Assembly: GCA_043228905.1 (NCBI GenBank)
Contig: JBHGNT010000006.1
Location: 992,001-1,056,000, forward strand
Direction: 5' to 3'
From: Azolla caroliniana
Taxonomy: Eukaryota > Plantae > Polypodiophyta
DNA: 64,000 nucleotides
Within the stretch, counting starts at the first letter, position 1. Every line of letters begins with the position of its first letter. Below are positions 1 to 32,700 of the stretch, in pieces. The notes beneath the pieces are model-generated. The model saw only the letters and a list, made by a program, of their open reading frames with translations. It made no database searches and was not told the DNA's origin. Position numbers and translations under genes: made by a program.

Positions 1-2045
1 GGTCCTAGCTATATTTTCTCTAATCCGGTTTTGCTCTGAAGTCAATACACCGGAAGATATTTGCCCTCCTGGAGGGACAATTTCAAGTTGTTGTTCATCG
101 TCTTCTTCTTCCTCGAACTCCAAGACGTCGAGGTCCTCGTCATTAGATATTTGTCGTTTTTGATATTTTTTATGTTTCGGTTTTGTTTTCCGAGACTTTT
201 TAGGCGGAATCTCTGCTTCTGTGCTCATCATCTCTCCGGTAACATAAGGCCGAAGAGCTACAATAAGATTATTCTTTGGTTGCATATCTTTTCGCAAAGA
301 TTTTGGGTGGCATACGTCAGGTACTAGGTTTCCTTCATCAACTTGCACTCGCCTTATACCACCGGAGCTCTCAACTTCGAGGAAGATAATGGACGAATCA
401 TTGTCTTCATATTCTAAATTACGAACTTTACCATAGGGGAAGGTCTTCCCTAATTCAAGCTTTCCTTTTCCTTCCGACGTGGCAAATATGAGGAGCAATA
501 CCCCATCTTCTTCAACATAAGTGAGACTCCATTTTACGTGTGAATAATTTTTTAGCTTATGCTCCGTGGACTTATCTTCTACGAGCATAATTTGTTTATT
601 TTTCGTATTCCCTACGGATGATTTCGAAGTCCCATCACCTCCGGACTCGAATAATGATCGTCGAGACTTTTCTTTTAAAAAACTCTCCGAGTCATGTTTT
701 GTCGGAGTCCGGAACTTCAACTTGAAAGACGGCACCTTCAGACGGGGCTCACTGGGGAAAAAAGCAAAATATTTTCGTGAAATAAATGTAAAATATACGT
801 GAATACACCAAAACACAACTAAATTCTCTTTAATACACCGTAGTACACGTAAAATACACATAAAACGCACCTAAATACACGTAAGTGCACCAAAATACCC
901 TTAACTACATGTAAAACACACCTAAATACACTAAACCCTAAACTGAATACTCTCCAATACACCTAAGTACACGTAAAATAAACATAAAACACACCTAAAT
1001 ACACGTAAGTAGACCTAAACACACCTAAACACTACTAAATACATATAAATACACCTAAGTACATGTAACAGACACGTAAATACGACGAAATACACCTAAA
1101 TATACATAAAATACATCTAAATATACCTGCATCGGATTTCAGAGGATTTCCTATCCACTCCTCCCTAATCCGATGCACTGCATCGGATTTCAGAGGTTTT
1201 CTTATCATCTCCTCCCTAATCCGATGCAGTGCATCGGATTAGAGAGGACATCCTCTGAAATTCGTTGCACTGTGTCGGATTTCAGAGGTTTTCTGATCAT
1301 CTCCTCCCTAATCCGATGCACTGCATCGGATTAGGGAGGAAATCCTCTGAAATCAGAGGTTTTCTCATCATCTCCTCCCTACTCCGATGCATTACATTGA
1401 ATTTGGGAGGATATGATACGACATCCTCTGAAATCCGATGCATTGCATCGGATTTCAGAGGATATAATACAACATCCTTTGAAATACGATGCGTTTCATC
1501 GTATTAGGGAGGATTTTCTTCCTAATCCGATGCAGTGCATCGGATTTCAGAGGTTTCCTGATCATCTTCTCCCTAATCTGATGCAATGCTCCCTAATCCG
1601 ATGCACTACATTGGATTAGGGAGGATATGTTACGACATCGTCTGAAATCCGATGCATTGTATCAGATTGGGGAGGATAACCTCTGAAATCCGATGCATTG
1701 CATCGGATTTCAGAGGATGTCGTATCATATCCTCCCTAATCCAATGTAGTGCATCGGATTAAGGACGATAACCTCTTATTCTTATGTATGTGTTGTCTTA
1801 ATGTCCTATCTACCCCCATGCAGTTCATCGAGTTAGCGAGGAAGTACTTTCTAATCCGATGCACTGCATCGAATTAGAGAGGACATTCTCTCAAGAAACC
1901 GAAGAAATTATACATACACCAAACTAATTATAATTAAAGTCACTCAATTTTATAGATAATAAAAAAGAATCTTTATGGTATCTTTAGGAATCTTTAAATT
2001 TGGGTAATAGAAGACTTACTTGCCAACTGTCTTGCTCGATTTCAT
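1..2045 (-). CDS. Unknown protein, spliced (exon 1 2045-2020, intron 2019-752, exon 2 751-<1), 3' end runs off the window
   Basis: Exon 1 reads ATG AAA TCG AGC AAG ACA GTT GGC AA|gtaagt. The acceptor is ttttttccccag|T GAG CCC and the phases match (AA+T = Asn). Exon 2 is open for about 250 codons to the window edge: MKSSKTVGNEPRLKVPSFKLKFRTP...KWSLTYVEEDGVLLLIFA...PPKKSRKTKPKHKKYQKR...EFEEEEDDEQQ. It is absent from the ORF track because no stop lies in the window. Confidence 0.75.
787..1127. repeat. Degenerate A/C-rich tandem repeat (about 11-12 nt units such as AAATACACCTA / AAGTACACGTA)
   Basis: Many recurrences of tacac/acacctaa/tacacgtaa. It lies in the 3' part of the minus-strand intron and is G/T-rich on the sense strand. 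Confidence 0.85.
1128..1885. repeat. Array of palindromic modules (AATCCGATGCA-N-TGCATCGGATT junctions with two arm types, TCAGAGG and AGGGAGG)
   Basis: About a dozen 40-70 nt units, each bounded by TGCATCGGATT...AATCCGATGCA, with short variable interiors in either orientation. Confidence 0.92.
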
Positions 2046-2153
2046 GTTAGACTAGTTGTTGACAATGTGTTGATGAACACAGAAAACGATGACTTTTTCT
2101 AAAGAGTGCTCTGAGCTCTTGAAACGTGTAAGAGATAATGAGCGGTAGATCTC

Positions 2154-2163
2154 TATTTATATA
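2154..2163 (-). promoter_or_regulatory. Candidate TATA box for the minus-strand gene, within an AT-rich divergent intergenic region (2046-2410)
   Basis: TATATAAATA on the minus strand, about 110 nt upstream of the ATG at 2045. Confidence 0.45.
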
Positions 2164-2410
2164 GTTAACTTAAATTGTTTTTTTGGAAAATAAAATAAAT
2201 TTTTTTTTTAAAAAAATCTCTTAAAAAAATACAATATTACACAATAAATTATTATAAAAAATTTACAAAATTAAATAATAATATGATGTCAATATACCTT
2301 ATCTTTTATCCCAAGATGTCTTCATATGGTTTATGTTCGTAGACTAGATCTTAAATTCCTAAACTTCTACTTAAACAAGAGAAAGGTGTTAATTTAAGTT
2401 AGGCTTCAAG

Positions 2411-5164
2411 ATGTCTTGTGCTTCGAGTAGATCATCCTTGTTTTCAGTGGACCCTTATGTTTTATCGAGTAACTCATATTTCTCAGTCGATGAGTACAAG
2501 GTCCCAAGTGTTTCAAAGGGTCCAGGTGAAAATGTTAGTTGTGATGTTGGTAATAACTCAAACTCACTTTTCTCAATTGACCCTTTCAAGAGGCCAGGAC
2601 AAAGTGGTATACAAGAAAGCAAAAGTTGTGCAAGCATTGACAAGGATGAAACCACATCTGGCGAAGCTTGCGTAACAAAGCCTCTCACATTCAAAAGAGT
2701 TCCTCGACAAGTTAGTGTAAAGAGATATAACTTTTTATGTTCTGATCGTCAAATTGTTTGTGATTCGAGCAAGACATGTTGTGGGAATCTATGTCTTAAT
2801 AAATTTGGAAAGTCAAACTTACGAATAATGCGGGAGAAGTATCTATCACTTAATGGTGAGGAACAAGATACTTTTCTTATTTCACATATGCAGCTTGTAA
2901 GAGATCACGCCACTGGGGCTAGTTCAACGCACGTTGAATATTACCTTGCATTGAGGACTAAGTGTTGTAGAGTTGCTTTCAAAATTGCTCATAGCATTCG
3001 GAACATGAGGCTTCAGAGAATACAACTAAGATTGGTGAAGGGATCGTTTATACCTTTTGATATGAATTCCTCTGGTAGTAAGGGTCTTATAGGGCGTCAT
3101 TCTATTAATTGGATGGAGATATATTTCTCAAAGCAATGTGATATTATGCCTACTACTGGGAGATTGCACTTGTCTGATAATTTCACTCGTCGTCAGGTGT
3201 ATCAAGAATATAAAGACGACATGTTGTCACAAGGTGTACCTTACATACAGTATCGACATTTCAATCGATTATGGAGGTTACAATTTAACAATGTGGTTAT
3301 ACCGCGTAAAGTTCGAATGGGTGTTTGTTCAATATGTGCAAGTTTAAAGAGTATGGCAAAGGGTGGGAAATCAGATGATGAAATAAAGAATTACAAGAAT
3401 CTATTGAAAGAACACCGTGAGAGTCAAGCATTGGAACATTCTAAAGCTATGCACCACCGACGAAAAGCTCTCCAATCACCTGAAAGGTATATGTGTATGA
3501 TTATTGATGGCATGGATCAGAAGAAGACTTGTTTGCCACACTTTCAAAGGTTGCCAAAGGATATTGGAGATGAATGCCTTGTACAAATGCATTTAGTAGG
3601 TTGCTTGTCATATTGTCAGACAATAAGGCCTCAAGTATTCTTAACTTATCCTAATATCCACAACAACCCTAATCTTACAGTTACAGTCATGCAAAGAGTG
3701 TTGCAGTCTTGGCCAGGTATACTCCCGCCTGTTCTATACGTGCAACTTGACAATACAGCCAGAGAAAACAAAAACTCAATTGTTTTCAGTTACTTAAGCA
3801 TGCTAGTAGAGAAGGGTTTATTTAAGAAGATTAAGGTTAACTTCTTACTAGTTGGTCATACTCATGATCATATAGATCAAATGTTTAGTAGGTTCTCAAA
3901 TAAATTAGCACGATGTGATGCTTTCACGCTTCCTACGCTAACAACGTTGATCAGTGAAGCTTATACCCCAAAGCCCGAAGTACATCAGTTGAATGAAGTG
4001 TATGATTTTAAACGCTTCTGCATGGATGGTGATGGGGCTCAAGGTAGGGTTCTTGCACCTCTGAATAATATAAGTTTTAACCATGTCTTCCTCATAAAAC
4101 GAAGTGATATGAGCCACAACACGACGATGTTGTATGCAAAACAATACTCATCTAGTTCACAATGGGAGCCACAAGAGGGTTGTAGGTTCTTACTTTATTT
4201 TCCAAATACAGAAATTCATGGTGCAGAACAAATGTCGTATGATGACCATAAAAAAATGGTTCATAGCAACTCAATTGATGAGAAAAAGATATATTGGATG
4301 CGATGCCTTGAAGAGAAACAAAGAAATATTGAGCGCACCAAGAAGTATGCTGGTGATCAAGATGTTCAATGGTGGGATACCTTCTTTAACCATCAACATA
4401 CAATTTTAAACAACTACATTGCCGGAGTATGGCCAATCCAAAATGCTTTCACATGGAACATTGGTATGTCGTCAATAGTTTCACCTGCTAACCATCAATT
4501 AATTGGTAATGCCGAACTCAATAATCTAGTTCGCCCACGACAGAGAGATATTTATGTGGGACCAAGAATATCGCGTACTGCAGAGGCAAGATGGCAAGGC
4601 AGTTTGCATGAACTACAAGTTGGGATGTTAGTTGCAACATTAGCTGGGGATGATGAGTTGGGCCATCCATTTTGGAGTGCTAAAATTTTGGATATAATGA
4701 AGGATGAATCAGGCAATCAAGTTAAGTCCATTGTGGTTCATTGGTATCACACCTCTTCACCAAATCCATTCACTGGAAAGTACTCTTTAGAGATTGTTAA
4801 GGATGTTGAAGGCACAAGTGGAAAGCGAAGAAGAAAGAATCTACCAAGCACGTATGTTCTTACATTGGATAATGTTGACATACTAGTGTATGACTTCTCC
4901 TTGACCAAAACAGGCCATCTAAGACAAACCACAATCAAGATATTAAAAGAGAAGATCCCAAATGCGGCTCCAACCACTACACAAAGACAAACAAGAAGCA
5001 TGTCTCATAACCATGGTGATGTTGGATTGCAATTGGATGAAGACAATGCATTGGTTGCCAGTGATGATGAGGATGATACCTCACAAAGCTCTTCTAGTTC
5101 ATCGGATGGGTCTGAAAATGATGGCATAGACTTGGAAAGCGATAGTTTGACACATGATCTGTAG
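2411..5164 (+). CDS. Sola-like/DUF7869-type DDD transposase, 917 aa, intronless, with a C-terminal SH3/BAH/Tudor-like beta domain and an acidic tail
   Basis: Cys-rich N-terminal motifs (CCGNLC, KCCRVAF, VCSIC). Putative catalytic motifs IIDGMDQ, YVQLDNTARENKN and FLLVGHTHDHIDQMFS resemble the Sola-type DN..NKN / FL..GH....D pattern. The C-terminus has LQVGMLVA...PFWSAKILD...IVVHWY. Confidence 0.8.
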   Translation: MSCASSRSSLFSVDPYVLSSNSYFSVDEYKVPSVSKGPGENVSCDVGNNSNSLFSIDPFKRPGQSGIQESKSCASIDKDETTSGEACVTKPLTFKRVPRQVSVKRYNFLCSDRQIVCDSSKTCCGNLCLNKFGKSNLRIMREKYLSLNGEEQDTFLISHMQLVRDHATGASSTHVEYYLALRTKCCRVAFKIAHSIRNMRLQRIQLRLVKGSFIPFDMNSSGSKGLIGRHSINWMEIYFSKQCDIMPTTGRLHLSDNFTRRQVYQEYKDDMLSQGVPYIQYRHFNRLWRLQFNNVVIPRKVRMGVCSICASLKSMAKGGKSDDEIKNYKNLLKEHRESQALEHSKAMHHRRKALQSPERYMCMIIDGMDQKKTCLPHFQRLPKDIGDECLVQMHLVGCLSYCQTIRPQVFLTYPNIHNNPNLTVTVMQRVLQSWPGILPPVLYVQLDNTARENKNSIVFSYLSMLVEKGLFKKIKVNFLLVGHTHDHIDQMFSRFSNKLARCDAFTLPTLTTLISEAYTPKPEVHQLNEVYDFKRFCMDGDGAQGRVLAPLNNISFNHVFLIKRSDMSHNTTMLYAKQYSSSSQWEPQEGCRFLLYFPNTEIHGAEQMSYDDHKKMVHSNSIDEKKIYWMRCLEEKQRNIERTKKYAGDQDVQWWDTFFNHQHTILNNYIAGVWPIQNAFTWNIGMSSIVSPANHQLIGNAELNNLVRPRQRDIYVGPRISRTAEARWQGSLHELQVGMLVATLAGDDELGHPFWSAKILDIMKDESGNQVKSIVVHWYHTSSPNPFTGKYSLEIVKDVEGTSGKRRRKNLPSTYVLTLDNVDILVYDFSLTKTGHLRQTTIKILKEKIPNAAPTTTQRQTRSMSHNHGDVGLQLDEDNALVASDDEDDTSQSSSSSSDGSENDGIDLESDSLTHDL

Positions 5165-5442
5165 ATATTGAATTGTACATCAAAATGTTAGTTAACGAAT
5201 ATGTATAAATATAGGTGGTAGTCATTTTGTACATTCTTTTGTAAGTTTGGCATGTCTATTATTTAGGCATTTTTTGAAAGACCTACAATTTTGGACATGC
5301 TTAAAATCAATATATTTTTGGGTCATTTTTTAAAATCCTTTATGCATGCAGCACCCCTTTTTGTCAATCGACCTATTTTGTGTCTTTTTTTGACGGATAG
5401 TTCTTAAAATGCGACATATTACCTGTTTCAAATGTCCCGGTG

Positions 5443-6724
5443 TTACTTGCATCCCTTGCTCAACCATTTGGCTGACCGAGACCAAATTCTTTGTGATGGT
5501 GGGAACATGCAAGACATTTTTAATGTATGTTTGCTTACCTCTTTCGCCGAACGGAACATTGCCGATGTGTTGAATCGGGTGCGTAGTGTCATCTCCGATT
5601 TCGACATAACCGGGTCGCTCCGGTTCTCGAAGTTCGAGAAACCATTCTTTATGGGATGTCATATGGTTTGAGGCTCCAGAGTCTACAAACCATACGTCCT
5701 CCGGATTGAGGGCACTAGTTGAGGTAGAGGCCGACATAGAGTTTGCTCTATGTTTCATCATGAACATTCCGCCACGATCTTCGTAGTCGGAGTTGTTCCC
5801 GTACATTCCGCTATACTCTTCGTAGTCAGAATTGTGTGCGTAATTCGTGAGTTGTCGACTTGTGGAAGCCGATTCACGCATCTTCTTTCGGCACTCTTCT
5901 TCGTGGTGGCCTAGCTTTCCGCAATATCTGCATTCGGTTGCGTTTTGACGGCTAGGGCTGGATTGGAAGCTCCCCCTTCTTGCGAAGGTTCCTCGTTGGC
6001 CTCCGTTTTGCGGCCGAAATTGGGAGTTGTTGTCGTAGGTCGGACCTCGTCCGCCTTGTCCTTGGCCGAATCGGCCTCTCGCTCGTCCGCGTCCTCTTCC
6101 TCCATTAGAGTGCGTGTAGAGCATGTGGCCTTCCGACTCATTGCTCCTTGTACGCGCGTGGTTTTCTTCGACCAATAGCATTGATTGGAGCTCGAAGAAG
6201 GAGGGAGATTTCTCCCGTGCTAGAACGGCGGTTCGCATCGCGCCGAACCGTGGTGCGAGGCCGCCGAGGCATATTTGCACCATCTCATCATCATCTATAC
6301 TTACGCTTATTGAGCCGAGCGAGTCGCAAAGCTCCTTGATCTTCAAGTTGTATGTCGTGATGGACATGTCCCTTTGTTGAATGTTGTTCAACTCTTGGCG
6401 GAGTTGAAGCTTCCTCGTGGTCGTGTTGGCGGCGAAAATCTTTCGCAGATTTTCCCACGCTTCCTTCGGCGTCTTGGCTTCTCGAATGTAACCGAGCATG
6501 TGGTCGTGAACACATGTCGCCAAACAATACATCACACGGCTTGCGGCTTGCTCCCATGTCGCGTATCCGGGAGCCGCTTCGGCGGGTCGGTCTTCATGCA
6601 CTCCTTTGATGTAGCTCCAATAGCCTTGTCCGACAAGGTATTGGTGCATATTGTACTCCCAAGATGCGAAGTTGTTTCGATCCAACTTCTCGGTAGGGAG
6701 AGCGCTCCCCATTTGAGTATTCAT
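5443..6724 (-). pseudogene. Copia gag-protease ORF, truncated by the insertion
   Basis: UBN2-type gag, zinc knuckle CRYCGKLGHHEEEC, protease WFVDSGASNHM, and NVLHVPTITKNLVSV. Confidence 0.9.
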
Positions 6725-7263
6725 TATATCGATTTTTCTTCTTCTTCTTCTCTCTTCGAATGCGAGCTATGTAGCGAAGCTACGATAGCTATGAGCCGGT
6801 TCTTGGTCGTCGGCATAGAGCACAACACACGATCACGATGAGGCGAATGGGCTAGATCGAGCTACCAAATCGCTCTGATACCATGTAAAGAATCAAGAGA
6901 TGGATTCTTGTGAAGCGGAATAGGTGTGAACTATGTGTGTATGTGTGTATGAGATAGAGAGAGAGAGAGACACAGAGTATACGCAAGGTTAAGTATATTA
7001 GCAAAGGAGAAAGACTCAACATTATACAAGATGGGAGGAGGGTGCTTTATGTAGTCACCCTCTCTCTTCATTAACTACAAGGCTCATGGAGCATGGGGAA
7101 TGTGAAAGCTCATAAGTTATGTGTCATGGAATATGATTCTATGACTCATACTAAATGCTAGAATACAAAGTGGTGACATAATGGTGACTCTTGACCGTTG
7201 AGGTGTCTCTTCACTCTCAAGGTGAGTTCACACACTAGACCAAGTTGAGCTTGATTCTCAACA
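5443..7263 (-). mobile_element. Ty1/Copia 5' portion (5' LTR 7263-6884, PBS 6883-6872, gag-protease), interrupted by the DNA transposon and inserted in Gypsy RT
   Basis: The LTR reads TGTTGAGAATCAAG...CTTGATTCTTTACA with terminal inverted repeats. It is followed by PBS TGGTATCAGAGC (initiator tRNA-Met). Confidence 0.92.
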
Positions 7264-9880
7264 TACAATTATGTCTTTTGGTCTCACAAATGCTCCTGCG
7301 ATTTTTCAGCATATGGCCAATGATATTTTGCGAGACTTCTTGGATATATTCACCATCATTTATTTAGACGATATCTTGATATTTTCCCAGACTCAAGAAG
7401 AGCATGATGAGCATGTACGCCAAGTTCTACGACGATTACAAGAATATGGTCTCAACCAAGTGGAATTCTTGGGGTACATAGTATCACCAAAAGGAATATC
7501 TATGGATCCAACAAAGGTGCAAACAATTCTAAAGTGGGAAACACCACAATCTGTGCATGATATCCAATGTTTCTTGGGATTTGCAAATTTTTACCGCAAA
7601 TTCATTAGGAACTACTCAAAGAAGGTTCTGCCTCTTACACAATTAACACATAAAAACCAACCATTCATATGGAATTCTAGTGCGGCGGAGGCCTTCAAAA
7701 GCTTAAAACATGTGTTCACATCAACTCCTATTTTGATCCATGCTGACCAAGACAAGCCTTTTATTTTGGAATCTGATGCATCAGTTTTTGCACTCAGGAT
7801 TGTCCTCTCACAACCCAAAGAAAACGGGCTATTATATCTAGTTACTTTTCATTCATAGAAAATTTGAAGCTACAGAAATTAATTATGAGATTCACGATGT
7901 CAAGGAGCTTTTGGCTATTGTAGACTCTTTTGAGCACTGGCGCCACTTTTTGGAAGGTTCTCCCCATCAAATCATTGTCTATAATGATCACAAGAACCTA
8001 ACATATTTCCAGAATGCTCGAGTCTTAAATTGTCGACAAGCTCGTTGGGCACAATTTCTTACATGCTTTGATTTCTTGATCGTGTATCACCTCACAATAC
8101 ACTAGGGAAAGGCAGATGCGCTATCTCGGCGTTCCTACATGGCACCCTGTTTAGGGGAACCTACTTTTGATCATCAGAAACAGATCCTCCTTGGTCCTAA
8201 CCCAGTCCTGATCGTTTATAAGTGATGCTCGCTAATGCTTTTAAGATGCCCACGGACTCGACACTTATTAGTATGATTCGTATTTATCTTGAATCAAATG
8301 AATTTGCACAAGATGCCTTGAATCATATCATTCCAGATCGTGCTTCTTGTTCAAAGTCCATGAATTCTCGTAAAGATTATAATCAGTTCAGTTGGCATGA
8401 TAATTTACTTTTTCGAAATAATTTACTTTATGTCCCTGATGGCCGTTCTCAACTCCCTACTTTACAACATTGCCATGACATGCCAATGGCTGGACATTTT
8501 GGAGTTCACAAAACTTTGGAATTAGTTTCTAGATATTATTGGTGGTTGCATCTTCATAATTATTTTGAGGACTACATTCGCAGTTGTGATGCATGTTGTT
8601 GGTCCAAGTGTCCTCGACATTGACCATATGGTTTACTCCAACCCTTACCAGTTCCTAATGGTCCATGGAAGTCTATATCTATGGATTTCATTACCGATCT
8701 TCCATCTTCCAAAGGTTTTGATTCCATCCTTAGTGTTGTAGATCGCTTCACTAAGATGACACATTTTCTACCATGCACAAAAACTATTAATAGTCAAGAG
8801 ACAGCATATTTGGTTATGCGTGAAGTGTTTCGGCATCATGGTCCACCTTATGATATCATTAGTGATTGAGGACCATAATTTATCTCAACATTTTGGAAAC
8901 ACTTGTTTGGGCTTGGGCTCCTCCAAATTCATTGTAAACTCTCTTCAAGCTATCATCCAGAGGCTGATGGTCAAACCGAACGTACCAATCAAACCTTGGA
9001 ACAATACTCATTGGGTAGATTATTTGCATTTTGAGAAGTTTTCTTACAATAATTCAATTCATTCTTCTACTAAACTTACTCCCTTCTTTGCAAACATGGG
9101 TGTTCATCCCTGTTGGACAATGCTTGAGCACCCAAAATCTTGAAAAACCCTGTTGTAGAGGATCGCTTATGTCATATCTAGGAAATTCATATTGCTCTTT
9201 CTTTTCTTTTCTTTTTTTCCAAAAACATATTGCTCTTTCTCATCATGCTCAAGCCACCCATAAGAAATTTACAAATCGCCATCGACTCAACTCATCACCG
9301 AAAAACCCCAAAATTCAAGTTGGAGATTGTGTATGGCTCTTACAACATAATGTGAAGACCACTAGGCCTTGTAACAAGTTGGATTATCAATGTCTTAGTT
9401 CATATTTAATCACTTAAAAAATCAATGAAGTTGATTTTCATCTTGATCTCCCTCCGCATATGCATCTTCATCCAGTGTTCCATGTCTCACTCTTGGAACC
9501 TTATGCTTCAAACTCTATTCCAGATCATGTTGTTCCCCCGCCACCTCCTATTGAGCTTGATCAAGGCGTGGAATATGAAGTGAAATCCATTTTGGACTCC
9601 AAAGTTGTGAAGAACAAATTGTATTATTTCGTTGATTGGTTGGGTTATACACCCGCGGATTGAACATGGGAGCGAGCTAAAAATCACAATAATACCAAAG
9701 AACTTGTAGCTAAATTTCATCAATGATATCTGAATAAGCCAACTCCTAGTTCGTGCATTGTGACTCATGGAACTCATCATCGAAGGAAGGGGATAATATA
9801 CCAAAACTCTAAGACTTGTAATGGAGGTTCAAACCCATGACCTCCTTTAAGATGATGTGAAGCTTCAACCACTAGGATAC

Positions 9881-16042: not shown

Positions 16043-18724
16043 AACACTAATCAAGTATTACTTACCCTACGCCATTGTGTATGTGTGTAAGTAGTTGTCA
16101 ACGGGCAATTGTATGTTTGCCTCACGTGCTTCGTTCACCTCTTGAGTGCATGCCGCAATCTTTGAACACTAATTAGGTAAAGGGCGACATCTGTTTTACA
16201 AGCTTATTTGGTTTGCATAGTATAGTGCCTTGTGTTTATCAACCCTCGATTAGTTTTAGGGGGTTTTCTTGCCCTTAACAACTTCATCCCCTCAAATGTA
16301 TATTCTAGCCTCTTTGTTTTGAAATAATAGATGCTTTGGTATTAATACACTCGTAGTTTAGTAAAAGGAAGAATTTGGTTATTACATTTTTAGTACATGG
16401 TGTACGCTAGTATTGAGTTGGTTAAGGGAGAATAAATATGTGTGCTTAAATATGACATGCATTTTGGGCTTCAAGGAGCATTTTGAACTTCAAAGCATAG
16501 ATTTTAAAGATTTGAATGGTCACAAAATGGAACTCTCTTTAGATGTAGAAACTATATATAAAACATTTACGTATAAACAAATTTAGTAAATAGAACATTT
16601 TTCAAGTCCTATTCAAATTTGAAACTTTGTGACTTAACCGCTTGTTGCATAACTAGTAAGGGTGAGTTTGATATATTAAAATGTCAAAGGAGGCCCCTTT
16701 AATAATTCTCTTAAAAAAACAAATTTTAGTAAGCAAACCATGCACTCGAATCAACCATGACAATTCATTTGAAATTCGTCTTGTGTGTCTCACTAGCATG
16801 CTCGTGGTTCCGTTATCGTGCATCTTCTTAGAACAACTTGTTTGATTGTTGCATGCATGTTATCTAGGGTTTTAAGAATGCAATATTATAATCACACTTC
16901 CGATGACCAAAATGTTTATTCCATAAATGGATTAGTTCAAAGTAAATTTAGTGAAATATTACAGGAAAAAAGAATGTGTTACATAAAAAAGACAAGGAAG
17001 GATGAACAAATATGGCAAATTTTGAATCATTAGCATCGCAGAACTTCTCTCTTCAAAGATTATTTGGGAGTATTGCTTTTAGAATATCTTCCATTGTTGT
17101 GCCCATCGATGATGACACTGAACATCATCATCATCACTTAAATTTTTACGAGGTTATATGGTGTGATGGATGAGCTAGGTGTTACTTACATGAGGGATAT
17201 GTAGATCTCCACATAGGATAAGGCCCTCGTTATGACCTAATGTTTACTTACAAGTAGATTTGATCTCTCTTCGATTCCTCAATCCAAGCTCAAAAAAAGC
17301 ATATGGGCCTTGATCTTATAAAGAGGGTATTATCATCGCTACCCATGGTACTAATTGAGCAAATGCATGAGTTGTGTTACACAAAAGCAAGTATCAACGA
17401 GGTGGTTGAATGCTCAATGAGGTGGTTAAAATTTTAGCGTTACTAACACGGGAGATTTTAGGGGTTGTTTGTAGTTCAATAACCATTTTTCGAGTAGTTT
17501 GAAACATACTAACTAATGTTATGTATGACAAAGGTTTTTTTTCACATATTTGCCCAACTTAATAACAGAGTAAGGAAATACCAATAATATTCGCTACAAA
17601 ATAAGCTAAGATTAGATTGTTTGTGATGATTACTAGTTTCATAACTTATATGTTTGCCCAACCATATGTATATATAGTGACTTACCCAAAACGTCCCTTG
17701 TTTGGTCCACCATGCCCAATGGTTGTAGGGGCCTGGGGAGGGTTTTCCCGCATGAACTTGACTTGGACCTTTTTAGGGTTTGGCAGAGTTGAATGGCCTG
17801 GCCTGGCCTGGCTTGTGTGTGGTGCATATACGTACATATACGAATGACCTCCCTCCTCCCCCCCCAAAAAACAAAAACAAATGGATATTGGTCTGAAATC
17901 AACATTTATGGAGTAAAAAATATTTGGAGTTCTTCCCCCAAAAAAAAAACACAGCAAAAAACTCGCCACAATTATTTGTTCGTGATTTTGTTTCTGCTGC
18001 AGAGCAGCAGTCTCTGTTTCATCGCGATCTGCTTGCCCCCCTTCCCGGCGCCCGCCACGCCCGCACGCCCGCCTGCTTTAGGGTAAGCTTTTCCTTCTGT
18101 CTGTGTGAAGATCGATTTGTTAGGGTTTCGTCTCTGTTCTAAAACCAAATTTGTCTTTAGATCAACCGTAAAAAATAGAAAAAAAATCAGAAGCTCCGGA
18201 GAGATTTGAGAAAAGAAAATCTCAACCTTAGCGGAGCCAAAGAGAGAAGAACAGAGAAGAGCAATTCTAGTCCCTTGAAGACGTTCTTTGCTTCAAATTT
18301 AGCTTCACAGCTTTCCATGCAGACAGGTTTTGTACATTAAATTTGTTATTGAACAGTTTTTTCCCCTCAGAAAAAAGAACCTCCAGATTATACTCCCAAA
18401 TTTGCAGACTTATGTTTACTCATGCATCCAGGTTTTCCTCACAGATTCTGTCTTACAAATTAGTGTTAACGGATATCTGAAAGTGCTGTTGAATTCATTG
18501 GAAATGTTTTCTTCATTCATACTCATGAATTGAGTGCAAGCGCAAATATGTGTGATGTAAGGTAATAAATAGGTTTTACGCTGTACTAAGTGCCTGCTTA
18601 CAGTGAAAATTTCAGAGTTTTGAATGGGTTTTCTTTTCTGTCTAGGTAAATCATCAAGGATAAAACACATATATCCGGTGAGACTTTAAGATGTTTGAAG
18701 TCTGATCATTGTTGAAGTGAATGT

Positions 18725-21700
18725 ATGGATAAAGAAGCTATGTTGTCTTTTTTCTTTGGGAGCCTTGAGGATAAGAGTGTTGACGAATCAGTTGTTCCCC
18801 CAAGAAATGAGGATATGGTAGTTACGGAAGATGAGATTTCCCAGGGTAATTTTATTAACATGCACAAATCTACCGTCTTGGGTCTTAATAAGAGCTTTGA
18901 AATTTTGAGTAATGAAGAATCAGCTGTTTTTCCAAAAGCTGAGAATGTGATTCCACAGGATGATCGTAAGAACACTGAGAACTCCACAACCTCAACTGTT
19001 GATATGAGCTTTGAGAATATGAATGTTGAAGAATCTGCGATTTCTTCAAGAAACGATAATATGAGAATCACTGGAGTTGAGGTTCCACAGAATAATTGTA
19101 TGAACACTCACAAAGCGACAGCTTCGGTTGTTGATAAGAACCTTGAGAATGTGACTCATGAAGACCTGGCTGATTTTCCACGAAATGAGGATTTGATAAG
19201 TACTGACATTAGCCTTCCACAGGATAACTATATGAAAGCACACAAATCCATGGCATCAGTTGTTGGTATTGATTACACAAATAACTTGTCAAATGAAATT
19301 GCTGGGAAGAGAAAAATGCTTCAATTATCTAATATTCCCTCAAAAGATAATTCACAGTCTTCAAACGTGCTATGTGAACTTAGAAGTTACCAGCAAGAGA
19401 AAGGAGCACAGTGTGGTCAGATTATTAAAATGAACTTTGATGTAGAACTTGAAAATGTAAATGAGGATCCCAAGTCTTTAATTTGCATGGATGTATGCAC
19501 CCAGGAAACATCACATGCAACTATTCTGGATGCTTTTAGTAATGATACAGAATCCACAGAGAAACATTTTGCAGCTTTGAACAAGGAAACTCTTGAACCT
19601 AGTGGCAATGATACGCTTTTACCAACATTTGATGACGTTGTTCTTGGAAAACTGGCCACAGAACAAAGCCTAATATTTGAAGTTGGGATGGCTGATGATG
19701 ATGTTTCCTATGACATTAATATATCTTCTGTAGAGGATGAAAATCAATGTACTTTTGATTTCAAAAGCGAAAGCAGCATACATCGTGAAGCATGCAACGG
19801 TAAATTTAAGCCAAGGAAGCGTATTGGAGATAAGGTTGATTATGTGGCTTCTAGATTTAGTAGAGGTGATCTGGTGTGGGCCAAAGTTAAGTCTCATCCT
19901 TGGTGGCCAGGACAGATTTTCAATGCCTCAGATGCTTCAACGATTGCTAAAAAGACTCAGAAATCTGGAAGACTTTTAGTAGCCTTCTTTGGTGATGGCA
20001 CTTTTGGTTGGCTGAAGGATTCTCAACTCATAGCCTTCAAGCCAAATTTTGAACAGAAGGTAAAACAGACTAATATGAAAAGCTTTTCTAGGGCAGTTGC
20101 AGCAGCACTAGATGAAGTTTGCCGGAGGAGTGAGTTAGGTCTCACTCATTCACGCCATAATGTTCTCCTATATAGCAAGAATACATTTCCACATGCAAAT
20201 GCAGGAATACAGAATAGTGTGAAGATTGAACACCATCCAGATATCTCTCTGAGTCGAGTGATGTTTACTCCAAAAGCGGTATTGGAATTCATCCAAACTG
20301 CAGCATGCTGTTCTTTCCACCAACAGAACTTCAGTGTCGAATATTCAGAAATTTGTGGTCATGCGTATGGCACTCGTTCATTTTTAGTAAATTCTGACAA
20401 GTCAAATTTGCTCAATATTGAAATAGCAAATAATAAATCTAATGAAAAAGCCATAGAAGATACTCTGAAGAGGAGGTTTTCGTCTGTTGAAGCTGTTGAA
20501 GAGGCAGTATGTGCAGAAAGGAAGGAAGCAAAGAAGCCTTACTGGAGTGAAAAGGATAAATCTGTAAGTGATAAAGGAATGAAAGTGAAGAAGCCACAGC
20601 TGAGCGAAGATGCTCTAAAGAATTGTCAGGTTTGTCCAAAGTTGAGGATACAAGAAACCATTTTATCGACAGAAGAAGGTGATACACTAGTAGAAAACAA
20701 GGACAGGGTGTATGAAGGTCCTGACGGTCCTGTTAAGGAAGCAACTTCCAGTAGAAGCAACTGGCGACTTGCTTCGCAGGAGTATGAAGGAGGGAAAAGC
20801 TCAAAAAATTTAGCAAATCTAGGGGAAAGTGAGACAGCTCCTTTGGATATTGGTAGTGATGGAGAGGCATTTCTTGACATTACAGGTTATCCATCCAAAG
20901 TAATGAACAAGAAGCATGAGAAAATACTAAAACGAGAAAAGCAAGCAAAGCCCTTGTTTTCCCCTGCAGGATTTGTTCTTTCCACAGCAAAGCTGCCAAC
21001 TGCTGGCAAAACCTTCGAAGATCATTCTCAAGGGAGTAATAAATCTGTACCTGGTGTACTGCCAGAGTTCAAGGAATCAGAATATATCGAGGGCTTAAAA
21101 AAATATGATATTGATCTATCACCAGTTACAGTGATAGAACCATCAAGCGGCAAGGAAAGGAAAATACTTAAGGGAGAAAAGAGAACAAAACCGTTGTGTC
21201 CATCAGAAGGTGATAATCTTCGCAAAACCAAGAAGATGAGAACTGAAATAAGAGAAATCAATGGACAGGCAAACATCATGCATAGATTGAAGGAACGGGA
21301 CGAGAAAGTTGTTGCGAAAAATCTGAACAGGATTGAAAGCTGTAACATGAAGCTTCTTGAATGTCAAGCAACATACAGTTCAACTCCACAACAATGTGAT
21401 TCTGATGTCAGAAGTGAGGCCTCAATCTCTGGCAAATCAGGCACTAAGAAGTTTGGGCATTCTCTTATTCGAATTGTTCAGGGCCTACAGGTTCTCGCCA
21501 GAGATCCTTTGAGATATGCAAGTAGAAGAAGCTCCCTGCAAGAAGTAATATCTTCTATTTTAAAATTCCGCAATAATGTCTTTTTGAAGAGTTCAGGGTA
21601 TGGTATTACAGAGATCAGGGCTGTAGTGAACCGAAAAGCACTAGACAAGGCACAACTTGTAACTCACAGTGTGAAACATGTGAAACCAAAATTCAATGTT

Positions 21701-22783
21701 AAAGAATCTTCTTGTGAGCGAAATGAAGTACAGAAACAACCTTCATCTATGAGGGAAAAGCTGAATTTGAGGATTCCGTCCAGCACAGTAGACCTAGAGC
21801 AGAAATGTCCTATTGAGAATGTGGAACTTCAAAGTCACACATATGATTCGCAAACCAGTAAAGATTCTATTTTTCTAGAACGAGGAGTTACCACTCCATG
21901 CCTATCTCCTCAGAATTCAATACCTGGTCTACAAGAGCTAGCTGTAGCGGCAAGGAAAAAGAAATCAGAAGTCGAACAAGAGATAGCAACAACAAAAAGC
22001 ATAGAACAATCTTTTCGAGAAAAACTGAGCAAAAGAAAGTTCTCTGATTTGAGACATGGGTATAGGAATATGAAGCAACATCATTCTAACAAAGATCCAT
22101 CTGACTCATCATATATGAAAATGCCTATGCGCACAGCTGATGCTAAGGCCACAGAAACTTCACTTGGGCTTTTCATGCAGTTCCCAAAAGATTTCGTGAT
22201 GCCATCTGAAGCTCAGGTGAACAAAGCATTTAATCAATTTGGGATTCTAGAGAATGCAGGTATTAGACTGTACAAGAATACTTCAGCTGCACAGGTGATC
22301 TTTAAGCTTAATTCGGATGCTGAAGCTGCACTAAAGTATGCATTAGAAAACAGAATATTTGGAGCTGAGGTATCATATAAGCTTCGTCACTTCTCTCGGT
22401 CTCAAAAAAGTCCTGTATTTAGCAATACATCTGCCTCAAACCATACCATTTGTAGAAGGGATGATCGGGGAAAATCTCCATTCATTGAGAATCTAGAAGA
22501 AAATGTGAAAGAAATTGATTCAGTGATGACCACATGCATCCCAGCAGATCCTGTAATGTCACATCAGCAAATCAGCCATGACAAGTTGACAGCTAATAAA
22601 CTGACTGTCAACACTAAACCTCCTAATCTGACCTCGCCTTCCAATGTAAATGTACCATCTTGTGACATTAAGGATCAAATGATGAAACTTCTTCATGAAG
22701 TGAGTCTTATTGTTAACTCATGTTCATTGAATCCACAGCTACTTCACGAGTCGTTGATCTTGGATATTGATGACAAATATTGA
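18725..22783 (+). CDS. PWWP-domain chromatin protein (plant PDP/Tudor-PWWP-MBT type), 1352 aa, single coding exon
   Basis: PWWP domain FSRGDLVWAKVKSHPWWPGQIF...LLVAFFGDGTFGW. Also the conserved LARDP...ILKFRN motif and a C-terminal RRM-like LFMQFP..PSE...FG...AQVIF...DAEAALKYA domain. Likely 5' UTR exons start near 18000, with a donor AGG|GTAAGC near 18083. Confidence 0.93.
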   Translation: MDKEAMLSFFFGSLEDKSVDESVVPPRNEDMVVTEDEISQGNFINMHKSTVLGLNKSFEILSNEESAVFPKAENVIPQDDRKNTENSTTSTVDMSFENMNVEESAISSRNDNMRITGVEVPQNNCMNTHKATASVVDKNLENVTHEDLADFPRNEDLISTDISLPQDNYMKAHKSMASVVGIDYTNNLSNEIAGKRKMLQLSNIPSKDNSQSSNVLCELRSYQQEKGAQCGQIIKMNFDVELENVNEDPKSLICMDVCTQETSHATILDAFSNDTESTEKHFAALNKETLEPSGNDTLLPTFDDVVLGKLATEQSLIFEVGMADDDVSYDINISSVEDENQCTFDFKSESSIHREACNGKFKPRKRIGDKVDYVASRFSRGDLVWAKVKSHPWWPGQIFNASDASTIAKKTQKSGRLLVAFFGDGTFGWLKDSQLIAFKPNFEQKVKQTNMKSFSRAVAAALDEVCRRSELGLTHSRHNVLLYSKNTFPHANAGIQNSVKIEHHPDISLSRVMFTPKAVLEFIQTAACCSFHQQNFSVEYSEICGHAYGTRSFLVNSDKSNLLNIEIANNKSNEKAIEDTLKRRFSSVEAVEEAVCAERKEAKKPYWSEKDKSVSDKGMKVKKPQLSEDALKNCQVCPKLRIQETILSTEEGDTLVENKDRVYEGPDGPVKEATSSRSNWRLASQEYEGGKSSKNLANLGESETAPLDIGSDGEAFLDITGYPSKVMNKKHEKILKREKQAKPLFSPAGFVLSTAKLPTAGKTFEDHSQGSNKSVPGVLPEFKESEYIEGLKKYDIDLSPVTVIEPSSGKERKILKGEKRTKPLCPSEGDNLRKTKKMRTEIREINGQANIMHRLKERDEKVVAKNLNRIESCNMKLLECQATYSSTPQQCDSDVRSEASISGKSGTKKFGHSLIRIVQGLQVLARDPLRYASRRSSLQEVISSILKFRNNVFLKSSGYGITEIRAVVNRKALDKAQLVTHSVKHVKPKFNVKESSCERNEVQKQPSSMREKLNLRIPSSTVDLEQKCPIENVELQSHTYDSQTSKDSIFLERGVTTPCLSPQNSIPGLQELAVAARKKKSEVEQEIATTKSIEQSFREKLSKRKFSDLRHGYRNMKQHHSNKDPSDSSYMKMPMRTADAKATETSLGLFMQFPKDFVMPSEAQVNKAFNQFGILENAGIRLYKNTSAAQVIFKLNSDAEAALKYALENRIFGAEVSYKLRHFSRSQKSPVFSNTSASNHTICRRDDRGKSPFIENLEENVKEIDSVMTTCIPADPVMSHQQISHDKLTANKLTVNTKPPNLTSPSNVNVPSCDIKDQMMKLLHEVSLIVNSCSLNPQLLHESLILDIDDKY

Positions 22784-25385: not shown

Positions 25386-28098
25386 TCACTTATCTTTCTC
25401 TTTCTCTGATTGACTGCCAGCATTCAGTTCTGCTGCATATGATACATAAAGTATTCACATCAGAAATGTGAGGGAATATTTACATAAACCTTTTTAAAAT
25501 CTATTTCACAAACCTTCATCATCTATGTCACGGTCTTCAGTATGGTCATGGTCATGGTCGTGATCGTGGTCGTGATCATGGTCGTGGTCATGGTCATCCA
25601 GTCCACCAGGTTGATTGAAGCCCTGAAAATAACAGTTGCATACAGATTCCATCAAAATAAATAAAGAAATACATTTGCATCACCAGTTATAGATTTGACC
25701 TCATGGTGCATGTAGGACACATTACTACATGAACACATCCTAGGCCCCAACCTTAAGCATTGTACAGCTAGGATTGCAACCTCTGATGCATTATATCTGT
25801 GCAATCATACTATATGATTGCAATCTCAATTCAACACTCAGAGCATAATGTAAACATTAGCTAAGATAAACTTACACAAAACAATAGAGATAGCAACTCA
25901 CCGAAAAGTCTCCAAGGTCTCCCATGCCTCCCATGCCTCCAAGGCCACCCATACCCCCAAGGCCACCCATACCCCCAAGGCCACCCATACCTCCAAGGCC
26001 ACCCATACCTCCAAGGCCACCCATACCTCCCATGGATCCAAGGTCAAAGTTGTCAACTGATATTGATGAAAAATAGAAAACAGTTTGGTCATTCTGAGGA
26101 AAAATAGGCACAGATACATATATTGTAAATTTACCAGTGTAGGCTTAGTGAAATCAGAGCAACATTTGAATTTTAAAATAATTGAGAAAGCAACACATAC
26201 TTTAATTTACAAATGTCTTACCATCATTTTTAGCCTCGTCTTCTTCATCTTCATCAACCCATTTATCCCAATCGACCTTGAGGTATGGGGGAGGCTTGCT
26301 TTCCCCTTTCAAAAGCCTCTTCCACCATCCCTTCTCACTCTTTACAAGAACACAGAACACATTTCTCAAGTTTGTGCTAATCTTACTGTCCTGCAAGCAC
26401 CAAAACATTGAATATATTCATGATGCATACAAGATATAATCCATCAATACGTGAATGATTGGCCCATCATGCACAGTTAAATAAGTGGCATTCCTATATG
26501 CTCAGAACTATATCAAGGACAGACGACATCAATTGTAGGAAAACAAATACAATTGAAAAACTTCCTCGAACATTCTGGTGTGCAAAACAACATGTAGCAA
26601 AAAGGTGAATCAGTTATATGTATTGGATGAACAGGTGCTGCAGGCAATGGTAATATTCCTGTATGCAAATACACATATCACTTCAAAAATTAGTAGCAAC
26701 GAGGGAAAGTAAAAGTAGTCATGTATGCTACTGAACAAAAAATATTACCATGTGGTGCAACATGTAACTTTCAAAGAGTATACCAATGTGGCAAAAAAGG
26801 CTAATCAACCTCAAAGGTCCCAAATGAAATAACATGTACCATTTTGAAAATCACATTTGATGCAAGAAAATGTAAATGACACTAGTTATGGCATCAATAT
26901 TAACTACAATACCAGAACATTAGCACATGCAATACCATATGTCATTTAAAAAAGAGCATTACGTGTGGAGATAGCAAAATGCTGCATTTACCTCAACATT
27001 AACCCCCTCGAAAAGGTCAAAATCAAGTTCATAACCAGAAGCCGTGAAGACAAACTTTCCATCGGGTTCAACCTTTACTTTAGGATCTTTCGCATCAGGT
27101 AGAATAACCGTGAGATATACCTTATCAGATCTCTGTGCCCACTTCACTTCAGGATGGCGACTACATTCAATCCAAAAAACAATTTTGCTTATTGTTCAAA
27201 TAAAAAACCAATGTCTGAGAGCATGTGAAACTTGCTATTTTCAAAAACCCATTGTTTTGTTTCGACAGAAAGAAACAAAATAACGTACATCTCTTGCTTA
27301 TAAATAGATAAAATAATCTGGCATGACAAATTTTCCCAGGCTGTACTCAAATTCTGATACCACGTACGTACCCACAAACAAATTCAGAAAGCATATGAAT
27401 GATATTCACAAACTCCAATAAATCCACAACTCTAAATGTGAAAGAAGAGTTCACTTAAAACTCTCATCTTCTTTTGGGCTTCTGGAAAGAGAGAGAATGT
27501 ACACTTGCAACCTTCAGATGTTCGTACGGTCAACAGAAACACATCATAATTAGTTTCAAATTTTACTATACTATGTAAGAGTATAAAGCATACGGCCAAC
27601 ATAAACATGTCATAATCAATTTCAAATTTTACTATATTATGTAAGAGTATGACGCCTAACTACTTAAATTAGGAAAAACCAGCTTACTATATGGCAAATA
27701 AATATCACTTGAAGGTGCTCTAACCTTAACCTGACCATTCACAAGCACAACATAAAATGCACCTGAAGTTGCTCACACCAATCGCTCGTTTTTCACGGAA
27801 AGAACATGAAGACGTACGCATTTTCTTGTTTAATAGTTTATACATATAGCGATCAGAAAGCGTTCAGTAGAGGTACATAACAGTCCGAACAGTATCGGAA
27901 CAAAGGAATGAATACAAAACAAATACTACCAGGAGAAACTCGAGCGGGAGGGGAAGGAAAGAGATCAAGGATAAAAAAGAAAACCCTAAGAAACACATCC
28001 GAATCTCAAAGTAAACTAAATGACAGAAAGAAAGTCACACAATTCAGCGAAAACAGATAGAACTGATGAGATGAGAAGACCAGAGTGGCGTACCTCAT
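25386..28098 (-). CDS. p23: p23 (HSP90 co-chaperone, CS domain, SBA1/PTGES3 family). Exons 28098-28094, 27160-26992, 26390-26222, 26056-25902, 25622-25514, 25432-25386
   Basis: Spliced translation: [20 protein letters not shown]...GWWKRLLK...[15 protein letters not shown], then GGMGGL repeats, a (DH)9 tract and ...EKEKDK*. All introns are GT-AG with matching phases. Confidence 0.93.
25915..26035 (-). repeat. 18-nt coding tandem repeat (GGMGGL) in p23 exon 4
   Basis: Repeated GGAGGTATGGGTGGCCTT on the minus strand. Gly/Met-rich tails are known in plant p23-1. Confidence 0.9.
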
Positions 28099-29590: not shown

Positions 29591-29758
29591 TGTCGAATAC
29601 AAGTGTATAATGGACATATTCACACTATCCCTTTGGGCCATTTGTGTAATTAGCATAAAGGGTAGTTGCCCTAAGTCGGTCTCTATATATAGTGACCTTG
29701 TACCCTTTTTGTAAGGTTGGGTGTTGTATTATTGCTTTGTTGAATAAGAAAGTCTTTT

Positions 29759-29795
<37 letters not shown>

Positions 29796-32700
29796 CAACG
29801 ACCTACAATCTGTCATACGCAGGTATACTCAACAGCAATCGAATGCTCCTTGATCTTCCGCACTGACGGCCCCTTGTCTCCCAACATCTGGTATCAGAGC
29901 CTGCACAGTAGTCGGTCCTTCAATCCGCTGTCGGCCGTCGTCTCAGCCTGCACAGCATTCGGTTTCCTGCGTCATTCGAAGAAGAGAGAAGAAGAAGAGA
30001 AACGAGGCTTGCATCTCATCGCGTTAGATCATCTTCGCTTGGAGTAAGCCAGCCGGTTGTACTCTGTTCCTTGTGATCGTAACCGCTCGAGGTGAAATCC
30101 CCTTGTGCAACATTGACACGATCGTGCTCCACTCGGTTAAACAGCATCCGAAAAGGTCATTAAACGTTGCTCGCCGCTCGTTGTAACCACTTGGTGCAGA
30201 TCGGTCTCAAGACAACAACCCCAATTCGCGCTTCATCCGGCTGATCGACATTCGGGAGGATCAGTTGGATCTGTCTCTCTCGTCGCTGCAGCCACCCGAA
30301 GCAGAATCGGTCCAGATAATCGGTTTCAATAATCGGTATTCGGCATATATATATCTGAAGCGAACCGGGCTCACTCCGACTCGGCAACATTCGGGAAGAC
30401 CAGTCGGTTCTGTCCCTCAAGCTACCGGAGTCAATTCGAGCAAGTTCCGAAGCCGAACCGACTCGGGTTCAAATCCGACTAGAACGATATCGGGTGAGCC
30501 AACCGGCTGCACTCCAACAAGGTTCGTAGTCAACTCCGAACCGAGCTTCGTCAACCGAAACCAAATTTGATGGCATCAACATCCGGCTCGTCAGAAATGA
30601 GTCTACGAAAGTTCGATGGATCGAACTTCAACTTTTGGAAGGAACAAATGCAGGACTATCTCATAGTCAAGGGGCAAATCGATCCCATCGAAAATGAAGA
30701 ACCTCCAGAAGGATACAAACCAATTGAGTGGCAGAAGCTGGACAGAATCGTCCGCGCCACGATTCGGATGCACCTATCGGAATCGGTATACTTTACGGTG
30801 CAATCGTGTACGACAACATTCGAACTGTGGAAAACACTGTCGGACACTTACGAAAAGAAGGTCGCCGCAACGAAGATGTTTTTGATCCGGCGCCTCTACG
30901 ACTTGCGGATGAAAGAATCCGATTCGGTTCAAGCACACCTCAATGAGTACGAAAGCATAAGCTCCCAAATCTCGTCATAGGGGACGGCAATCGAGGATGA
31001 ACTCAGAGCAATGATACTCATGAGTAGCCTTCCCTCATCATGGGAAACTTTCGTCACAACCGTGTGCAACGCGTCAACCACGGCTGTTAAGTACTCCGAA
31101 GTCACGAGCGCAATCCTGACCGAAGCAGCTCGGAGAAAGTCTTTCGCCAAAGACTCAACAGACGACGCTTATGTAGTACAAGGTTCGACAGACCGATCGA
31201 ACATACGAGGAAGAGATTCCTCACGACCGCCGAACAATCAACGAAGACGGAGCCAGTCACGGGATAACCGAATCTGCAACTATTGCAAGAAACCCGGACA
31301 CATCAAAGCCGACTGCCGCGCACTCAAGAACAAGAACAACAAGAAGAGTGGCCGGCATGAGGAGATCAATTACGTCAGCTTCTCAGCTGATGTGCTACCA
31401 GACGACCCGAATATACTATCAATCGAAAATCCAGTCGGATCAGAAGTCCTACTCACGACTGAAGAGTCGAGCACATGGCTCTTAGATTCGGGCGCGTCAT
31501 TTCACGTGACTCCTCATCGATCCCAATTTCGGCAATATACGATCCGTCACTCCGACTCAGTTCGGGTCGGCAACTCGCAACGCTGTGACATCATTGGAAT
31601 CGGCACAGTAGAGCTCAACCTTGCAGGTGGCTCTACACTTGTACTCCACAATGTCCGACATGTACCCGAGCTCTCAAGGCCATTGATCTCAGTCGGACAA
31701 CTAGATGAAGACGGCATTCGTGCCGGTTTTTCTTCGGGAGGGTGGACACTCCACAGGGGGAACCTCCTGCTTGCTAGAGGACCCAAGATACACTCACTGT
31801 ATCCGTTACATGTTACGCTCAGAGAGGGTAACCTGTTTTTGGTGGATATTCCTGTGTCATCACTATGGCACAGAAGATTAGGACACCTCAGCAAGGCCGG
31901 CATTACGCATCTATCTAGAGCCGGATACATCCCTAAACTCTCCTTCTCCGACCATCAATTCTGCGAGCATTGCCAGTATGGCAAACAAGCAGCCGCATCA
32001 CACCCGACATCAGCACCAAGAGAAACGAGACCTCTCGATTTGGTCCACTCGGACGTCTGTGGCCCAATGCCGCATCAGTCTCTCGGCGGTGCCTCTTACT
32101 TCGTCACTTTTATTGACGATTCGACTCGAAAGGTGTGGGCTTATCCGATTCGCACCAAAGATCGGGTCTTCTCGATCTTCTCAGATTGGCTCGCTATGGT
32201 AGAAAATCAAACCGACCGAAAACTGAAATGCTTTCGGACCGACAATGGGGGAGAGTTCAAATCCGATGAATTCGTCAAATTCTGCCGACAACGCGGCATC
32301 CGACGTGAATTTACGGCACCACACAGTCCGGAGCAAAACGGGATTGCAGAACGAATGAATCGGACAATCCAAGAAAGGATAGTTTCCATGCTCCAACACT
32401 CCGGACTGTCGGATGGCTTCTGGGCAGAGGCTCTACTCACGGCAGTACACATAATCAATATGTCGCCAAGTAGACCTCTAGGACTTCAAATTCCTCAGGA
32501 ACTATGGATCGGCAGTAAGCCGAATTACGACAAGCTGAGGATCTTCGGATGCGAGGCGTACGCCCTTATTCCGAAAGATGATCGCCGAAAACTTGCACCT
32601 CGGTCCAGGAAATGCATTTTCCTTGGATATGGATCGGACGGCGAAATGGGATACCGACTCTGGGATCCCGAACGCAGACAAATCGTCCGAAGTTCGGACG

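Follow-up and report, generated by a model that had tools for sequence, protein, structure and literature searches.

The left edge of the 64,000-nucleotide stretch of Azolla caroliniana DNA analysed here (the window) carries a transposase gene on the forward strand and, head-to-head with it, a spliced gene on the reverse strand. This arrangement raises the question of what kind of element the two genes belong to and what the second gene does for it. A preliminary description took the pair for a Sola-like transposon that was young, possibly autonomous and undescribed, with an accessory gene of unknown function. The balance of the evidence tips slightly towards a joint reading in which the 5.4 kb at the left edge of the window are the right-hand part of a Sola1-like transposon of the cut-and-paste type, present as an ageing copy, whose accessory protein binds an array of palindromes and methylates DNA near the promoter shared by both genes, favouring their expression. 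The features located in the window are collected in Table 1.

Table 1. Predicted and observed features of the element and its insertion site in the window
Feature	Position	Strand	Remark
Exon 2, 5' part of accessory gene	1..751	-	Reaches window edge just before ParB-like domain
Predicted intron 1 of accessory gene, 1268 nt, GT-AG, phase 2	752..2019	-
AT-rich degenerate repeats inside intron 1	814..1126	.	Also present in L003 and L002
13 palindromes, TCCGATGCA-N-TGCATCGGA, at most 4 mismatches	1169..1873	.	Candidate parS-like sites
Predicted coding exon 1 of accessory gene, 26 nt	2020..2045	-
TATA-like box in 365-bp spacer between start codons	2157..2163	-	Consensus match
DDD transposase, 917 aa	2411..5164	+	DUF7869, E 4e-51
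Right TIR, 37 bp, AACAC terminus	5408..5444	-	36/37 identical to far-end TIR of L003
Predicted 4-bp target duplication	5445-5448		Length taken from TSD of L035
Copia gag-protease ORF	5445..6766	-	Disrupted by insertion of element

Boundaries, transposase and gene linkage

Relatives of the element were obtained from a metagenome scan in which 146 stretches were confirmed and the best 80 analysed as L-numbered loci. Most of the contigs are short and the assemblies are partly collapsed, so families are described here and not single copies. The element splits a Copia ORF (5330–6766, reverse strand), as first described. Its right boundary had been placed at 5442; the terminus is set at 5444 because 20 contigs with unlike flanks diverge from the window behind this position (one run) and because the TIR pairs of relatives (L005, L035 and L065) open with AACAC or AACAT. 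Both TIRs are present in four contigs of 7594, 7805, 7724 and 6044 bp, the last of which is internally deleted. One of these, L035, has TGTT on each side of the element. When the two flanks are joined, they align to two Ty3 sites that carry no insertion, leaving a gap of 4 nt, and a target site duplication (TSD) of 4 bp is assigned from this. No direct repeat flanks the element in the other three of the four complete contigs, which are probably collapsed assemblies. CAC as the terminus (CACTA- or Transib-like), insertion at AA|TT without a TSD and a TTAA TSD were each dropped after the empty-site comparisons and L035. Scans with the TIR pattern returned no match in the viral collection and none in the prokaryotic collection. 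At the left, locus L003, which is 94% identical in DNA to window positions 1–1320, runs on to a matching TIR; the window copy is therefore predicted to be ~8.6 kb long in full, with ~3.2 kb lying beyond the window edge.

Family members are also inserted in each other's methylase and transposase genes (L030:3280–5883, L044:4040). Two different families (L002:4290 and L037 near 3938) appear to be inserted at almost one and the same site of an LTR resembling window positions 43771–43814, and long direct and inverted repeat arrays lie beside an element end at L034:10960–15300. The remainder of the window contains Copia copies and degraded Ty3 sequence (7226–9417, 29591–34964, 43571–48682, 53972–59349 and 59665–64000), with LTR pairs that are 97–99% identical in some of the Copia copies, and an exon of 1355 codons that belongs to a host gene and encodes a PWWP domain (18716–22783). 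Two open stretches (37224–37781 and 41163–41561) gave no significant Pfam match and may be similar to a subunit of the plant Mediator complex. A 9-bp unit is tandemly repeated at 25903–26055, and a 70-bp unit occurs in three copies at 38568–38779.

The transposase ORF is uninterrupted, as previously noted, and its product matches only DUF7869 in Pfam. The structural model contains an RNase H core resembling Mos1 and integrases (Z 8.4–8.7; for Mos1, Z 8.4, rmsd 3.6, 176 aligned), and a Foldseek search with this model returned no match at E<=0.001. The model also features a winged-helix region at residues 220–301 and a BAH-like C-terminal domain at about 725–842 (Z about 6). The latter fold, encoded at window positions 4583–4936, resembles the BAH domains of DNMT1, EBS and ORC1b (Z about 6) and, going by the model, is a possible chromatin reader. 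The catalytic triad is conserved among aligned homologues at D366 (57/59), D447 (59/59) and D489 (59/59), and the closest named transposase is that of Ceratopteris (61%). The earlier label of an intact transposase holds for the reading frame and for these three aspartates but not for residues 262, 343, 460 and 795, at which all 18 close homologues compared agree and the window copy has private substitutions. These four are among 21 residues that distinguish the product from its nearest homologue. Exon 2 of the accessory gene differs between the window and L003 at 16 of 250 codons, half of them non-synonymous. With about 2% divergence from its nearest relatives and altered conserved transposase residues, the window copy is doubtful as a young and possibly autonomous element. 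Judged by these substitutions it is ageing, with open frames, and probably no longer fully functional.

The accessory gene begins with an ATG at 2045, 365 bp from the transposase ATG and head-to-head with it, in agreement with the preliminary description. A second TATA-like box, on the forward strand, lies at 2253 in the same spacer (consensus match). Among the best 80 of the 146 loci, 73 match the window exon, 48 the methylase described below (behind the ParB exon) and 15 the transposase. Where 1.5 kb or more of sequence precedes exon 2, a divergent transposase is present in 11 of 14 loci; where 2 kb or more does, the two genes are head-to-head in 10 of 11. Co-occurrence in relatives bears out the view of a Sola-like TIR element with two genes, the accessory one being stably linked to the transposase. 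Independently of these loci, the Riccia genes R1sor_010795 (DUF7869) and R1sor_010796 (PF01555) have consecutive locus tags. The accessory relatives that bear a name, 19 of the 30 looked up, are numerous paralogues from Adiantum, Chara and Riccia. A single-copy host gene was ruled out by the multiple homologues and the transposase-linked loci. Across 11 elements, pairwise distances in one gene are correlated with those in the other (Mantel rho 0.80, p 1e-4), with L003 standing in as the accessory row for the window in this and in the tree comparison. The trees of both genes part the same three clades and agree in their deep splits, differing at weak nodes.

The accessory protein and its relatives

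The earlier gene model of a 26-nt first exon, a 1268-nt GT-AG intron, a TATA-like box and 250 open codons stands. Intron 1 has the donor GTAAGT and a polypyrimidine-CAG acceptor, and the splice model is supported by L005 and L006, in which an exon 1 of equal length and phase precedes the same exon 2 behind a shorter intron. The 2020/751 junction did not turn up in four sequencing runs guessed to be RNA, one of which is flagged as probably DNA, and this counts neither for nor against the model. Exon 2 encodes the beta-rich domain, basic run and acidic run already recognised, together with a disordered N-terminus. The beta-rich domain shows weak PH-like and SANTA-like matches (Z 4–5.5). Pfam gave no significant match to the minus-strand ORF of the window, and Atlas gave no usable match with the N-terminal domain. 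A resemblance of the beta domain to TnpA found no support from Pfam or structure comparison.

A homologue search with the 250 codons yielded 34 homologues among 344 candidates. One of these, P0032, overlaps the last quarter of the 250 codons and runs on for about 300 aa. Its longer relatives are Ginkgo proteins (2 of 892 candidates) with a C-terminal PF01555 N6/N4 DNA methylase, one of which aligns additionally over the beta-rich domain of the window. The Ginkgo entries P0035 and P0036 are near-identical annotated genes with the N-terminal domain, the ParB-like region and the methylase, and P0036 reads DIPH. L003 continues through four GT-AG introns as an open model of 960 aa that ends before the 36/37 TIR. 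From these sequence comparisons, the minus-strand gene of the window is predicted to encode the first quarter of a spliced protein of ~970 aa. The accessory gene is no longer of unknown type, its relatives showing a fusion of a ParB-like region with an amino-DNA-methyltransferase.

In the model of L003 exon 2 (mean pLDDT 61), a ParB/Srx nucleotide-binding fold lies just past the window-encoded part. Foldseek identified this as a ParB/Noc fold (Noc and ParB, E 1e-4), and comparison with PadC gave VIA Z 9.8, rmsd 2.8 and 96 aligned. The ParB motif reads GGSHSxE in 25 of 27 aligned rows, with DGSHS and GGCHS in one each. CTP-binding ParBs carry an arginine patch, GxxRxxA. Inspection of the 27 aligned rows showed that an arginine-rich CTP-binding patch is absent from the ParB motif, and for this reason no CTP-driven sliding clamp is claimed. 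Among phages, ParB-like proteins that activate DNA-modifying enzymes are described as acting without the CTP residues (PMC13229309). A helical region (390–545) of low to moderate model confidence follows the ParB fold. No DNA-binding helix-turn-helix was identified in the L003 exon 2 model, in which pLDDT is 43–65 at 390–480, and a homodimer prediction of the ParB region, with a score of 0.02, was set aside. In the Atlas, the ParB-like region of P0032 comes closest in its features to DUF3723 proteins of fungi (score 0.95, with 172 features shared). DUF3723 is described as a conserved Starship cargo gene in a Starship preprint and, as a lead only, may be an accessory domain of transposons that resembles ParB.

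PF01555 is detected in exon 5 of L003 with 34.8 bits (cut-off 26.7) and in the Ginkgo homologues with 66–69 bits; exon 4 of L003 alone gave no PF01555 match. The motif order DIPY...QKP...DLFSGTG places motif IV before motif I, which is the beta-class arrangement, and NPYQKPQR and an LDLFSGT-type motif are present in the rows where these were retrieved. The best PDB sequence matches of a Ginkgo homologue are M.RsrI, M.MboIIA and CcrM (E 2e-6 to 5e-6). The catalytic motif of amino-methyltransferases has the consensus (D/N/S)PP(Y/F/W), as in DPPY and SPPY. Motif IV is DIPY here, off this consensus. It is found in 45 of the 47 loci showing motif IV (52 have an exon-4 match), the two exceptions carrying stops, and in every one of the 31 models free of stops. 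The 48 remoter relatives read DIPY (11), DAPY (7), DFPY (6), DPPY (4), DLPR (3), DFPC (3) and others, and a search found no methyltransferase literature using DIPY as the motif. The dN/dS of the methyltransferase exons is 0.018–0.136 in 8 of 10 pairs (2 saturated), against 0.05–0.20 for exon 2 in 6 of 10 pairs (the rest saturated). By these ratios purifying selection acts on the methyltransferase exons, and no other part of the gene is as strongly constrained.

An off-consensus motif IV that drifts to DLPR, DFPC and DIPS in relatives would fit a protein that counters silencing by binding only. Such a protein would sit on the palindrome array as a VANC-like shield against 5mC, and its methyltransferase would be a weak or dead domain used for SAM binding or as a base-flipping grip on DNA. 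The adenine methylase domains borne by DIRS1 elements are likewise called likely inactive (PMC4738411). This reading is considered unlikely, given the strong constraint on the methyltransferase exons relative to exon 2, the retention of the motif IV aspartate and aromatic residue and of the SAM-binding motif, and the four relatives that read DPPY.

The palindrome array and its proposed role

The preliminary description of intron 1 was right about the gene model and overlooked the array of palindromes within it. With up to 4 mismatches allowed, 13 palindromes are found in intron 1, spaced by 41, 51, 71 or 115 bp, and none in positions 5501–64000 (58.5 kb). The core CGATRC-N3-GYATCG occurs at the same place in relatives and is kept in all three clades. 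The palindrome variants follow these clades, with one subclade mixing two; the palindrome type thus follows the tree and gives no sign of co-evolution with the protein. The number of sites in the array differs between families, with a range of 1 to 15. Only a single palindrome is present in each of L005 and L006, and no exact palindrome was found in the 700–1000 bp upstream that were examined in L028 and L060; these four loci count against the array being general.

Three or more exact cores are present in 19 sequences, and their 123 spacings of 25–130 bp cluster at 30–33, 39–41, 50–52, 63 and 71–74 bp. They have a periodicity of about 10.3 bp (R 0.78 at 10.4 bp; 0.40–0.62 at off-periods), or 3 to 7 helical turns, and since the 123 spacings are not independent, significance is given as p 5e-5 on 39 distinct clade-spacing values and 0.035 on 11 merged classes. 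The several in-phase spacing classes suggest sites for a protein that would act on one face of the helix.

The array is located mid-element, at least 3.5 kb from either end, and adjoins the accessory promoter; it is not subterminal. This location bears on a role as transposition cofactor, in which the accessory protein, or else the transposase itself, would assemble the transpososome on the array or regulate excision, and methylation would mark donor ends or time transposition instead of countering silencing. The tight linkage of the two genes and the matching deep splits of their trees are consistent with such a role, as is a transposase with its own winged helix. The Myb protein of Harbinger offers a parallel, an interaction of MURA with MURB is documented (PMC12973397), and the phage ParB-like proteins are described as activating a DNA-modifying enzyme without CTP residues (PMC13229309). 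The position of the array beside the accessory promoter and far from the ends argues against a cofactor, and a similar pairing of ParB and array accompanies an unrelated transposase in red algae (bioRxiv 10.1101/2025.02.11.637652), so this explanation is given only a small chance. The palindromes also lie inside the protein's own transcription unit and vary in number from 1 to 15 across families, as might be expected of an autorepressor or copy-number sensor that binds and marks the intron and promoter of its own gene and lowers the expression of both genes. An autorepressor would have no need of a conserved methyltransferase, and target immunity is unlikely with members nested in each other (L030, L044); self-restraint of this kind is held to be quite improbable.

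The preferred reading is that of a methylating protein addressed to the array. A dimer of the ParB-fold methylase would load onto the phased palindromes along one face of the helix, and the methyltransferase would deposit 6mA, or less likely 4mC, near the shared promoter. An aspartate in motif IV favours 6mA over 4mC, which is a weak rule. The two promoters would thereby stay out of reach of 5mC silencing by the host. Excision of the element at its AACAC ends and its insertion with a 4-bp duplication would fall to the transposase, which has the winged helix, the DDD core and the BAH-like domain. In this scheme the spliced protein, its dimeric binding on one helical face, the mark and the anti-silencing benefit are all putative.

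A wider proposal is that a widespread transposon lineage of land plants, found in ferns and with relatives also in Ginkgo, Riccia and Chara, has an active, site-addressed writer of bacterial type, whose private 6mA or 4mC mark sustains expression against host 5mC silencing. It is put forward tentatively, with the chances somewhat against it. If true, a non-5mC DNA mark written by a transposon would have been shown in plants for the first time, a ready-made targetable methylation module would be available, and methyl-writing would join the known routes of transposon anti-silencing. Fern genomes are predicted to contain a local source of 6mA or 4mC supplied by transposons, which bears on the reality of such marks in plants. 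The compact, abundant and selected family, with a defined candidate site in three natural variants, makes the self-binding proposal made for algae directly testable.

Comparison with known systems

Like bacterial ParB/Noc-parS systems, the accessory protein has a ParB/Srx fold followed by a helical region, and the palindromes are clustered. Unlike them, it is fused to a methyltransferase, spliced and devoid of the arginine patch, and the site has an odd centre of 3 bp. The second gene of PIF/Harbinger elements is of the Myb/SANT type, and CACTA/EnSpm elements have CACTA/G termini with a short TSD. CACTA/EnSpm, including Plavaka, was rejected on the basis of the termini, which are AACAC and not CAC. 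PIF/Harbinger elements have a 3-bp TSD of TNA/ANT (PMC12477816); the 4-bp TSD, the ParB-methylase second gene and the DUF7869-only transposase speak against this assignment. Sola elements are described with a DDD transposase, a 4-bp TSD, TIRs of 11–1124 bp and lengths of mostly 2–9 kb (PMC10741241), which is matched here by the DDD triad, the 4-bp TSD of L035, the 37-bp TIR and relatives of 6044–7805 bp.

The methyltransferase shares the order of motif IV before motif I with M.RsrI, M.MboIIA, CcrM and, as described, Marchantia DN4MT1, and differs by reading DIPY versus DPPY. DN4MT1 is reported to read TSPPY (bioRxiv 10.1101/2021.02.12.428880) and is described as having no extra domains (PMC8885841). 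The Plavaka (EnSpm) elements of Bostrychia encode a PF01555 methylase, PAG2, and a ParB-like protein, PAG3 (bioRxiv 10.1101/2025.02.11.637652). As in the present element, a transposon-borne methylase and a ParB-like protein are described there beside inverted-repeat arrays proposed as binding sites; the Bostrychia elements differ in belonging to another transposase superfamily, in their length of 17–19 kb and in having separate genes (ParB-2OG oxygenase and methylase-SET).

The layout is not undescribed, as had been supposed, since Sola1-1_Ec32 of Ectocarpus carries an opposite-strand gene of the same kind (PMC12477816). Its product is described as a ParB-like and N4/N6 DNA methyltransferase protein of 1104 aa and is proposed to bind and modify the element's own sequence (PMC12477816). 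Literature searches, whose scope did not extend to Repbase, subscription papers or supplements, found no land-plant report of a ParB-methylase transposon. The two elements share the Sola type, the 4-bp TSD, termini starting with AAC and the opposite-strand ParB-methylase gene. Against this one reference, with its AACCG ends, the AACAC/AACAT termini share the first three bases. Sola1-1_Ec32 is 21.5 kb long with 282-bp TIRs, whereas the complete relatives here are 7.6–7.8 kb (8.6 kb predicted for the window copy) with 37-bp TIRs. The present element also differs in its land-plant host, in an extra N-terminal beta domain and in a phased palindrome array within the intron, to which the description of Sola1-1_Ec32 used for this comparison makes no reference. 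The element in the window, well supported as a two-gene Sola-like element, is a land-plant example of a design that was published for algae in 2025.
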